DNA of 8,999 nt from a virus (lineage: Duplodnaviria > Heunggongvirae > Uroviricota > Caudoviricetes). Positions within the stretch are counted from its first letter, which is position 1, and each line of letters begins with the position of its first letter. Where the stretch lies: the IMG/VR virus record IMGVR_UViG_2693429524_000011. One strand, given 5' to 3'. Below, piece by piece: positions 4,042 through 6,199 of the stretch. The notes under the pieces are model-generated. The model did not search any database. It saw only the letters and a program-made list of their open reading frames with translations, and was not told the DNA's origin. The position numbers were made by a program, and so were the translations under genes.

Positions 4042-4257
4042 TTACTGCGAAAGTTTGTTAATGGAAAGGAAGCCGCCAAAGTTGCCGACGTTATTGCGAA
4101 ACTTACAGCCACTCAGGCATTTGCTGCATTTATCCTTCGTGATATCGGACGTTGTCTGGTCATATTCATCCGCGACCGCCGGACCGTGATAACCGCACTC
4201 ATCGCCGCGATAGGTCCAGGTGCAGGTGTTGGCCAACATGATACGTCCCGGAAAAAC
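4042..4257 (-). pseudogene. L: C-terminal ~72 codons of tail tip protein L (Cys-rich Fe-S region), left by an internal deletion
   Basis: Minus-strand translation ...VFPGRIMLANTCTWTYRGDECGYHGPAVADEYDQTTSDITKDKCSKCLSGCKFRNNVGNFGGFLSINKLSQ* is recognised as the lambda gpL C-terminus. The N-terminal ~160 codons are absent. The listed 148-aa ORF 4042..4488 is this frame running on into antisense of the A 3' end. Confidence 0.8.
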
Positions 4258-4277
4258 AGTTCTTCCTGTCGCGTCAT
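4257..4277 (-). other. W: Deletion junction: first 7 codons of head protein W (ATG overlapping the A stop as ATGA) fused out of frame to the L remnant
   Basis: Minus strand reads ATGACGCGACAGGAAGAACTG (MTRQEEL, the lambda gpW N-terminus) and then runs straight into L-derived sequence GTTTTTCCGGGACGTATCATG. The W frame continues as a 54-codon nonsense ORF ending at TGA around 4113-4115. Confidence 0.8.
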
Positions 4278-6199
4278 TCATCCTCTTCGGATAAGGCACG
4301 GGCGTATTCTGCCAGTGTTTTCTTGTTGGTTGCTGCACCATCCTCTTCCTGCAGGCTCGCCAGCAGTGCACTGAGATCCAGCTGCCAGCGGGAAATACTG
4401 ATGCGCAGCGCCGCCAGCGCATAAACGAAGCAGTCGAGCGCCTCATTGCGTCGCTTTTTGCTGTCCCACAGTATTTTTTTCCTGCCATCCACCCATTTTT
4501 CGACCTGCTCTTCAGCAGTCAGCTGCTGCGCTTCGGTCAGATCAAAAATATCCGGGTTATTCGGGAAGTGAACGGCACCGGGAAGCGGTTCATCCCCTTC
4601 CGGCGTCAGTGTGAAGCGGTTATAAATTTGCTCTTTCGCGGTATCCGTACCGATTTCGGTAAGGTAAACCCCGTTTTTGTTTCGCTTACGAGGCATGCTG
4701 GCCACCGGCTTACCGTAGACGGATGCCCCTTTAATGGGGATCACCCGGAACAGCCCATGTTTTTTCGAGCGTTCATACACAATGGTCGGGTCAATCCCGC
4801 CAGTATCCCAGCAGATACGGGATACCGACATTTCTGCACCATTCCGGCGGGTATAGGTTTTATTGATGGCCTCATCCACACGCAGCAGCGTCTGTTCATC
4901 ATCGTGGCGGCCCATAATAATCTGCCGGTCAATCAGCCAGCTTTCCTCACCCGGCCCCCATCCCCATACGCGCATTTCGTAGCGATCCAGCTGGGAGTCG
5001 ATACCGGCGGTCAGGTAAGCCACACGGTCAGGAACGGGCGCTGAATAATGCTCTTTCCGCTCTGCCATCAGCTCGGCATCCGGACGTTCACCGATTTTCG
5101 CTTCCCATGTCTCACCGAGCGTGGTGTTCACGAAGGTTTTACGTTTTCCCGTATCCCCTTTCGTTTTCATCCAGTCTTTGACAATCTGCACCCAGGTGGT
5201 GAACGGGCTGTACGCCGTCCAGATGTGAAAGGTCACACTGTCAGGCGGTTCAATCTCTTCACCGGATGACGAAAACCAGAGAATGCCATCACGGGTCCAG
5301 ATCCCGGTCTTTTCGCAGATATAACGGGCATCAGTAAAGTCCAGCTCCTGCTGGCGGATGACGCAGGCATTATGCTCGCAGAGATAAAACACGCTGGAGG
5401 GGTCATCCGGCGTCCATTTGAGGCCAAACGGCGTCTCTTTGTCGCCAAATTTAAGATACTGCTCCTCCCCGCAGTGCGGGCAGGCAACATGAAAACGCAT
5501 AAAATGCGGGGATTCACTGGCTGCACGCTCAATCTGACAGGTGCCTCTCACTTTGGGCGTGGAGCCACGGATGGACTTTGGCCAGACCGAGCCTTCAATA
5601 CGCTTATCGCCCAGGAACGTCGGAGAGCCTTCCTGTTCAATATCATCATCAAAGGCAGCAAGTTCATCATAACCCGCCACATCCACTGACTTTTCACGGT
5701 AGTTTTTTGCCGCTTTACCGCCCAGGCACCAGAAGCCACGACCATTGGTGAAACGCTTCATGGTGAGCGTGTTATCCCGGTGCTTTTTGCCATACCACGG
5801 AGCCAGCGCCAGCAGCGACGGAATATCACGGATGGTCGGCTCAACGTGGGTTTTCATGAAGTTTTCGGCATCGCCATCCGTCGGCAACCAGATAAGGGTG
5901 TTGCGCTGCTTATGCTCTATAAAGTAGGCATAAACACCCAACAGCATTTTGGAATAACCGACACGGGCAGACTTCACCACATTCACCTCACGGATGTAGT
6001 CGCTGCCCATCGCATTCATGATGGCCCGCTGAAAGGGCAGTGTTTCCCAGCGCCCTTCCTGGTATGCGGATTCTTTCGGGAGATAGTAATTGGCATCCGC
6101 CCATTCAACGGCGGTCTGTGGCTCCGGCCTGAACAGGGCACGAAGCCCGGCGCGGACAAAATGCCGCAGCCTGTCAACCTGACTGTTCGATATATTCAC
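4274..6199 (-). CDS. A: Terminase large subunit (641 aa), apparently intact
   Basis: ORF-track protein MNISNSQVDRLRHFVRAGLRALFRPEPQTAVEWADANYYLPKESAYQEGRWETLPFQRAIMNAMGSDYIREVNVVKSARVGYSK... is recognised as lambda gpA, full length, with the P-loop KSARVGYS. It overlaps Nu1 by 26 nt as in lambda. Confidence 0.95.
   Translation of the reverse strand: MNISNSQVDRLRHFVRAGLRALFRPEPQTAVEWADANYYLPKESAYQEGRWETLPFQRAIMNAMGSDYIREVNVVKSARVGYSKMLLGVYAYFIEHKQRNTLIWLPTDGDAENFMKTHVEPTIRDIPSLLALAPWYGKKHRDNTLTMKRFTNGRGFWCLGGKAAKNYREKSVDVAGYDELAAFDDDIEQEGSPTFLGDKRIEGSVWPKSIRGSTPKVRGTCQIERAASESPHFMRFHVACPHCGEEQYLKFGDKETPFGLKWTPDDPSSVFYLCEHNACVIRQQELDFTDARYICEKTGIWTRDGILWFSSSGEEIEPPDSVTFHIWTAYSPFTTWVQIVKDWMKTKGDTGKRKTFVNTTLGETWEAKIGERPDAELMAERKEHYSAPVPDRVAYLTAGIDSQLDRYEMRVWGWGPGEESWLIDRQIIMGRHDDEQTLLRVDEAINKTYTRRNGAEMSVSRICWDTGGIDPTIVYERSKKHGLFRVIPIKGASVYGKPVASMPRKRNKNGVYLTEIGTDTAKEQIYNRFTLTPEGDEPLPGAVHFPNNPDIFDLTEAQQLTAEEQVEKWVDGRKKILWDSKKRRNEALDCFVYALAALRISISRWQLDLSALLASLQEEDGAATNKKTLAEYARALSEEDE

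Follow-up and report, generated by a model that had tools for sequence, protein, structure and literature searches.

The 8,999-nucleotide stretch analysed here (the window; IMG/VR record IMGVR_UViG_2693429524_000011) is identical to the entire draft-assembly contig CYFD01000096.1 of GCA_001284405.1 and holds part of a lambda-like prophage of Escherichia coli. Its relevant late genes are all encoded on the minus strand, where the order from 5′ to 3′ is the end of an IS1203 insertion sequence (IS), a lysis-region remnant, ylcI (itself on the plus strand), cos, the terminase genes Nu1 and A, a junction, and the tail genes K, I and J. At this junction the first codons of gene W run directly into the last third of the tail-tip gene L. 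The original prediction, made from the letters of the window, had read it as a single deletion fusing codon 7 of W to the C-terminus of L, and the mapping of the breakpoints by BLAST and by three-way alignment confirms this description.

Breakpoints and extent of the deletion

When compared with lambda (NC_001416), the window gives two BLAST blocks: positions 6896..4258 correspond to lambda 13..2652 (97.9% identity), and positions 4259..3196 to lambda 13910..14972 (96.7% identity). The blocks are collinear and overlap by two nucleotides, CT, with lambda base 2652 joined to base 13912 and a gap of 11,259 bp (lambda 2653-13911) between them; with an intact O157:H7 prophage as the reference, it measures 11,247 bp. 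Since these are kilobase-long alignments of more than 96% identity that end at the same two bases, a chance resemblance is excluded. The three-way alignment with lambda and the intact O157 prophage leaves, of W, six codons counted from the ATG plus two nucleotides (MTRQEE plus CT; 4258..4277, minus strand), after which the DNA resumes with the last two nucleotides of L codon 161. The L remnant (4042..4259, minus strand) holds codons 162-232 and the stop, and the joint with its 2-nt CT microhomology is thus mapped to 4258/4259 on the minus strand, inside the interval 4240-4285 where it had been expected. The 2-nt overlap is constant against four intact references, lambda and three others.

According to the annotation of lambda and of intact prophages, the gap contains W from codon 7, B, C, Nu3, D, E, FI, FII, Z, U, V, G, T, H, M and L codons 1-161, and none of the head and tail-shaft genes W through M is found between A and L in the window. 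The predicted loss of about 11 kb, from B through M with most of L, is in agreement with these figures. The prediction that some 72 C-terminal codons of L remain was right about the part that is preserved, although the count is 71 complete codons plus two nucleotides of codon 161.

The genes on either side are those of a lambda-type late operon. Upstream of the joint, cos is followed by full-length copies of both terminase genes, which are 99% identical to those of lambda. Nu1 (6174..6719, minus strand) encodes an intact small subunit of 181 amino acids that covers the whole Pfam Phage_Nu1 profile (E=9e-101) and shares 180 of its 181 residues (99.4%) with lambda Nu1, while A (4274..6199, minus strand) encodes an intact large subunit of 641 amino acids, with a GTG start, the Pfam families GpA_ATPase and GpA_nuclease, and 635/641 residues (99.1%) identical to lambda gpA. 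A ends in GAG GAT GAA TGA, and its stop (4276-4274) overlaps the W ATG (4277-4275) as ATGA, just as in lambda and as had been noted before. Downstream of the joint, L is cut to codons 162-232 and deprived of its own start, and K, I and J follow. K (3293..4036, minus strand; 247 amino acids; Pfam Prok-JAB and NLPC_P60) is intact, and in genomes with the same or related alleles its product is WP_000194779.1, in deleted and intact prophages alike. I (2754..3395, minus strand; Pfam Lambda_tail_I) is also intact, being open from 3395 with a RefSeq start equivalent to 3329, and the 5′ part of the host-specificity gene J (1..2693, minus strand) is open for 897 codons to the contig end, with matches to the Pfam families FNIII-A_GpJ, Phage-tail_3, Ig_J, Ig_J_second and Phage_Tail_Tip. 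Lambda resembles the window in gene order, in the A/W overlap, in the position of cos and in the L remnant (69 of 71 residues), and differs from it in possessing bases 2653-13911 and in its J and I proteins, to which those of the window are only about 81-83% identical.

Carriers of the joint and the complete prophage

At least six assemblies, a count that is a lower bound, share an identical 36-nt junction: the window contig itself (GCA_001284405.1), NZ_CP148401.1 and four further drafts that were found through exact-product look-ups (GCA_012607335.1, GCA_007648485.1, GCA_017594445.1 and GCA_001285905.1). One IMG/VR contig besides the window carries it as well, and its length equals that of the 4,951-bp contig of GCA_001285905.1. 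NZ_CP148401.1, which belongs to strain Z1323CEC0019 from a chicken in South Korea, is the sole complete genome spanning the joint among 5,426 complete E. coli genomes, and the exact junction 36-mer gave zero matches in JGI metagenome contigs and in GTDB species representatives, the latter being uninformative as they include one genome per species. The carriers differ from the window by 1-15 single-nucleotide polymorphisms (SNPs), which marks them as independent sequences of one inherited allele. Being found in one of 5,426 complete genomes and a few drafts, the junction is a clean lineage marker that could be used to trace this effector-carrying prophage.

The complete carrier gives the context that the window does not include. 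There, the element spans about 34.4 kb, from ttcA and the adjoining intR-xisR to uspF, at the ttcA (Rac/Sp10) site; intR/xisR adjoin ttcA and the right end adjoins uspF, as expected of integration at an attachment (att) site beside the integrase gene, which is seen in the complete carrier and not in the window. The left part comprises intR, xisR, ralR, recT and a recE interrupted by IS1203, followed by the immunity/replication region, the Q-region and four tRNAs. The late part comprises a holin gene, a truncated DUF1327 gene, IS1203, a truncated Rz-type gene, ylcI, Nu1, A, the L remnant, K, I, J, lom, stf and tfa, and at the right end there are three DUF1076 (NleG-type) genes, after which uspF is interrupted by IS1203. 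The order is lambda-like throughout. When the missing block from lambda, O157 and the prophage of strain UTME-12 was used as a blastn query, no head or tail-shaft DNA was found in the 40-kb NZ_CP148401.1 locus, which runs from the int-distal early region to the prophage right end, and for the left end the NZ_CP148401.1 annotation lists no structural gene. As no W-to-L DNA was found in this prophage, a rearrangement within it, which had been named as the outcome that would contradict a loss, finds no support.

The deletion is not the only lesion of this element. The IS1203 copy in the lysis cassette lies between the truncated DUF1327 gene and the truncated Rz-type gene (locus positions 14308-15521), with the endolysin region gone, and the further copies disrupt recE and the neighbouring chromosomal gene uspF. 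Genes for particle formation and lysis are thus lost or disrupted both by the W-to-L deletion and by IS1203 in the lysis cassette, in addition to recE. The complete carrier genome holds 6-7 copies of this late-region DNA. A phage satellite of the phage-inducible chromosomal island (PICI) or P4-like type, which would be expected to measure about 10-15 kb and to have its own int, regulatory and primase-replication module and a dedicated function for hijacking a helper, was considered and rejected, because the element is about 34 kb long and has an ordinary lambdoid early region (cI/cro-like genes, ydaT/ydaV, the Q-region and tRNAs) and an ordinary lambda terminase. The element is most probably a cryptic prophage.

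With regard to the age of the deletion, the original prediction had proposed a recent single event in an otherwise intact neighbourhood, and both parts of this proposal stand in part. The flanking reading frames are intact, and the 218-bp L remnant has no private mutations, since intact L alleles matching it at 100% identity occur in at least ten other genomes; on the other side, the scar has been inherited across several non-identical strains, and a very recent event is disfavoured because six assemblies share it. Similarly, A, Nu1, K and I are intact, but the lysis cassette and recE carry IS1203 and J has a 96-bp in-frame deletion (see below). The L remnant shows seven mismatches in 250 bp with respect to UTME-12, and reading these as decay that followed the deletion is ruled out by the identity with intact alleles in those ten or more genomes. 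Neither can the SNPs among carriers be used as a clock: three carriers show 11 coding differences, of which 9 are synonymous, and among the SNPs there is a cluster of four in a 35-bp stretch of J and there are several that agree with alleles of other prophages, a pattern that points to gene conversion and is the one that conversion from 6-7 co-resident lambdoid late regions would give.

Origin and fate of the deleted prophage

In our view, and with a probability of about 0.9, an integrated lambda-like prophage underwent a single illegitimate (non-homologous) recombination event, of which the junction is the scar. In this model, a break in W codon 7 would have been joined to a break in L codon 161 with at most two shared nucleotides (CT), and about 11.25 kb would have been excised, that is, the genes from W, B and C/Nu3 through M enumerated above and the N-terminal HDI domain of L. 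The resulting prophage would be unable to build heads or tail tubes and would lack a functional tail-tip hub. As heads could not be made, the deletion presumably arose, or survived, in the prophage state, where the molecular route may have been the end-joining of a double-strand break, a gyrase-type exchange or slippage. This element, which carries NleG-type effector genes, is degraded further by the IS1203 copies in recE and the lysis cassette, and the scar has been inherited vertically in a small E. coli lineage.

The joint itself has the characteristics of an illegitimate deletion, as there is neither extended homology nor an IS or att-type site, and the parental overlap is 2 nt. In fact, no IS, att-like site or above-chance repeat was found at the joint, and the parental sites match at 6 of the 12 nucleotides that flank it. 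An overlap of two or more nucleotides is expected in about 16% of random joins (P about 0.16, by our own calculation), and microhomology longer than expected by chance was not found, the overlap being 2 nt only. The idea that some feature was created or used at the joint was also rejected, since the promoter, terminator, RNA and repeat scans were empty or at chance level: there is no sigma-70-like promoter at the joint, one weak terminator-like site is at chance level, and no Rfam family was found in the whole window.

Other lambdoid prophages can be compared with this one. The prophage of UTME-12 (NZ_CP157095.1) occupies the same ttcA...uspF site; from L to J its DNA matches the window at 99.6% identity, and it encodes the same K, I, Lom and two DUF1076 proteins as Z1323CEC0019. 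By contrast with the window, its late region runs uninterrupted from Nu1 through J, its cosN is the canonical one of lambda, its early region is wholly lost, its int is truncated, and an IS3-family element is present; it illustrates the undeleted state of the late region. Deletions of the same block in strains A25, 1332KP and 789 have the lambda coordinates 908|12917, 956|13434 and 2721|11810, with joint overlaps of about 4, 6 and 19 nt, respectively, as compared with 2 nt here. These deletions likewise run from A or W to H, M or L and place Nu1, with or without A, beside the tail-tip genes L/K/I/J, and their differing breakpoints and overlaps identify them as separate events. A deletion hotspot was considered and rejected, as the three sets of breakpoints differ from each other and from that of the window. 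The K-12 remnants DLP12 nohD-aaaD and Qin nohA are similar examples of internal deletion. The deletion in the window is thus a commonplace case of prophage decay by illegitimate recombination, of a kind that is already understood, and it adds one more mapped example of lambdoid prophages that lose the morphogenesis block while the terminase-proximal and the tail-fibre/cargo-proximal ends persist.

Some observations weigh against this interpretation. The 2-nt microhomology is no more than chance would give, and hence the mechanism is not identified by it. Moreover, the Nu1-A side is 97.3% identical to the same-site prophage of UTME-12, while the L-J side reaches 99.6%, and owing to this inequality a single recent ancestor of both flanks is not required. 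Homologous exchange could have brought in another left arm, or the joint could have arisen between two separate phage genomes. Lastly, the loss of function is presumed from sequence.

The unequal arms argue for the strongest of the alternatives, a joint formed by illegitimate recombination between two lambdoid genomes, whether those of two prophages in the same cell or those of one prophage and one infecting phage, and the 6-7 late-region copies in the complete carrier imply that partner sequences were at hand. Homologous mosaicism among lambdoid prophages, however, accounts for the asymmetry equally well, and the SNPs among carriers (9 synonymous and 2 non-synonymous, several of them alleles of other prophages) fit gene conversion. 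Additionally, the element has one coherent map in lambda order, from intR to the effector genes, at a single att site. We regard such a hybrid origin as unlikely, at roughly one chance in eight, and either route would lead to the same end product with the same consequences.

A second alternative concerns the fate of the deletion rather than its origin, and proposes that the element has been kept as a helper-dependent mobile element, or has been domesticated, with co-resident lambdoid prophages supplying heads and tail tubes and the NleG effector cargo being spread in this way. If this were true, a headless and tubeless prophage would be a working vehicle for NleG-type effector genes. The prophages of enterohaemorrhagic E. 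coli (EHEC) O157 Sakai give a precedent: their morphogenesis, lysis and recombination genes have suffered deletions and IS insertions, with the terminase mostly kept (Asadulghani et al. 2009, PMC2669165), and complementation by co-resident prophages still allows prophages defective in heads or packaging to be packaged and, in some cases, transferred, Sp10 sharing the integration site of the present element (PMC2669165). As in the Sakai set (Sp3-Sp15), the element described here is lambda-like, carries effector-type genes of the kind encoded outside the locus of enterocyte effacement (non-LEE), lies at the Rac/Sp10 site at ttcA, has the same kinds of lesions and has an intact terminase; unlike it, Sp10 keeps all its morphogenetic genes, whereas the whole head and tail-shaft block is missing here. 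Also in favour of this proposal, int/xis, cos, intact Nu1 and A, and the tail-tip and host-range genes K-I-J-stf are retained, five of these genes (Nu1, A, K, I and J) have open frames that are near-identical to functional alleles in the carriers examined, the variation among carriers is mostly synonymous, and several other lambdoid late regions are present in the carrier genome.

These points are countered by several others. The lysis cassette and recE are destroyed by IS1203 in the complete carrier, and the element, at about 34.4 kb, is below the packaging minimum of lambda, which is roughly 38 kb. The synonymous bias would also be expected from gene conversion by functional paralogues, and retention of the terminase is no rule, since analogous deletions in other strains also take most of A. 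Furthermore, the allele is rare, being restricted to a handful of genomes, one of them among the 5,426 complete ones. Consequently, we find helper-dependent maintenance improbable, more so than a hybrid origin, and favour the decay of a cryptic prophage after one illegitimate deletion. As for an assembly artefact, which could be suspected because the window is a full 8,999-bp draft contig with an IS end on one side and its other end inside J (multi-copy in the complete carrier), and because lambdoid late regions are multi-copy in carrier genomes, it is effectively refuted by the recurrence of the identical joint in five further assemblies from other projects, one of them a closed chromosome and each with its own SNPs, and by parental sites that share only 2 nt, far too few for a false join in a k-mer graph.

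Remnant reading frames, cosN and other features of the window

The junction leaves two overlapping reading frames, as had been predicted. In the frame of W, MTRQEEL is followed by out-of-frame L DNA, giving a nonsense frame of 54 codons (W′; 4113..4277, minus strand). W′ had no Pfam match, its exact 54-amino-acid product was not on record when looked up, and gene callers do not call it. In the frame of L, an ATG at 4281-4279, which precedes the W ATG by four nucleotides and falls within the final codons of A, opens a frame of 79 codons that ends at 4042 (L′; 4042..4281, minus strand) and reads MNDATGRT followed by L residues 162-232. L′ is called as a 79-codon gene in one draft assembly and as a 65-codon frame from an internal Met in others, while RefSeq annotates the L fragment as a partial pseudogene. 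The L-frame ATG follows the GAGG of the ribosome-binding site of W with a spacing of 0 and the W ATG lies 4 nt further downstream, and for this reason the nonsense W′ peptide would be the more likely translation product of the two.

Window position 4287 (minus strand), in codon 638 of A, deserves a separate comment. Here GGAGAGG has become GAAGAGG in the window, a change that produces Gly638Glu in A and also weakens GGAG, a Shine-Dalgarno-like motif located 7 nt before the W′ start. The position is G in Z1323CEC0019 and GCA_012607335.1, the other carriers compared, and in four reference phages, and the substitution is unique to the window among these.

Two of the 71 residues of the L remnant are not those of lambda gpL, and the remnant covers positions 131-206 of the 206 of the Pfam Phage_tail_L profile. 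In lambda gpL, residues 1-166 form the HDI domain, which builds the last tail ring, and residues 154-232 form an iron-binding domain whose cluster is held by Cys173, 182, 205 and 212 (PMC10721106). The remnant holds most of this C-terminal iron-binding domain and all four cluster cysteines; as the HDI domain is gone, it would be unable to serve in tail assembly. As its reading frame is intact, L′ might conceivably be a source of a free iron-sulfur domain. For annotation, W′ (54 codons) and L′ (65-79 codons) should be treated as pseudogene remnants, and the prophage should be scored as defective.

The cosN sequence of the window (GGGCGGAAGGCG; 6897..6908, minus strand), which lies directly 5′ of the stretch that aligns with lambda from base 13, differs from that of lambda (GGGCGGCGACCT) at 5 of 12 bases. 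The same sequence was found in 14 IMG/VR viral contigs, and a 66-bp query across it matched 112 E. coli records at 95% identity or more, including plasmid records of about 46 kb. The notion that the odd cosN is a sign of decay is ruled out by this recurrence, and the variant seems to be a natural alternative to the cos of lambda, occurring together with a lambda-like terminase.

Further upstream, the small gene of the YlcI/YnfO family (DUF3950; 7100..7285, plus strand; Pfam PF13132, E=9e-19), also named YlcI/YnfO in the NZ_CP148401.1 annotation, is of a type that lambdoid prophages typically carry upstream of cos. A 95-codon open reading frame (8204-8491, minus strand) that lies between cos and the Rz remnant has no Pfam match and corresponds to WP_000343114.1, a hypothetical protein in the complete carrier. 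The IS1203 (IS3-family) end at 8876..8999, which is also one contig terminus, is 100% identical to two IS1203 ends in the NZ_CP148401.1 locus.

At the other end of the window, J has an in-frame deletion of 96 bp (32 codons) at about 621-628 (minus strand) with respect to NZ_CP148401.1, UTME-12 and lambda. The deleted segment starts with GCTGACA, and the identical 7-nt sequence follows immediately after it; through the deletion, the first Ig-like domain loses its end and the second its start (Pfam matches Ig_J 1-81 of 104 and Ig_J_second 7-104 of 105). When J was compared with the 5,426 complete E. coli genomes, the query was split in two pieces spanning the extra 96 bp in the 12 that ranked best. 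The site is about 620 bp away from the contig end, and both an assembly error and a deletion specific to this strain are possible explanations. Finally, one gene caller reports a 483-codon frame antisense to J (312-1763, plus strand), which is most likely spurious, as it lies wholly within the well-supported J frame.

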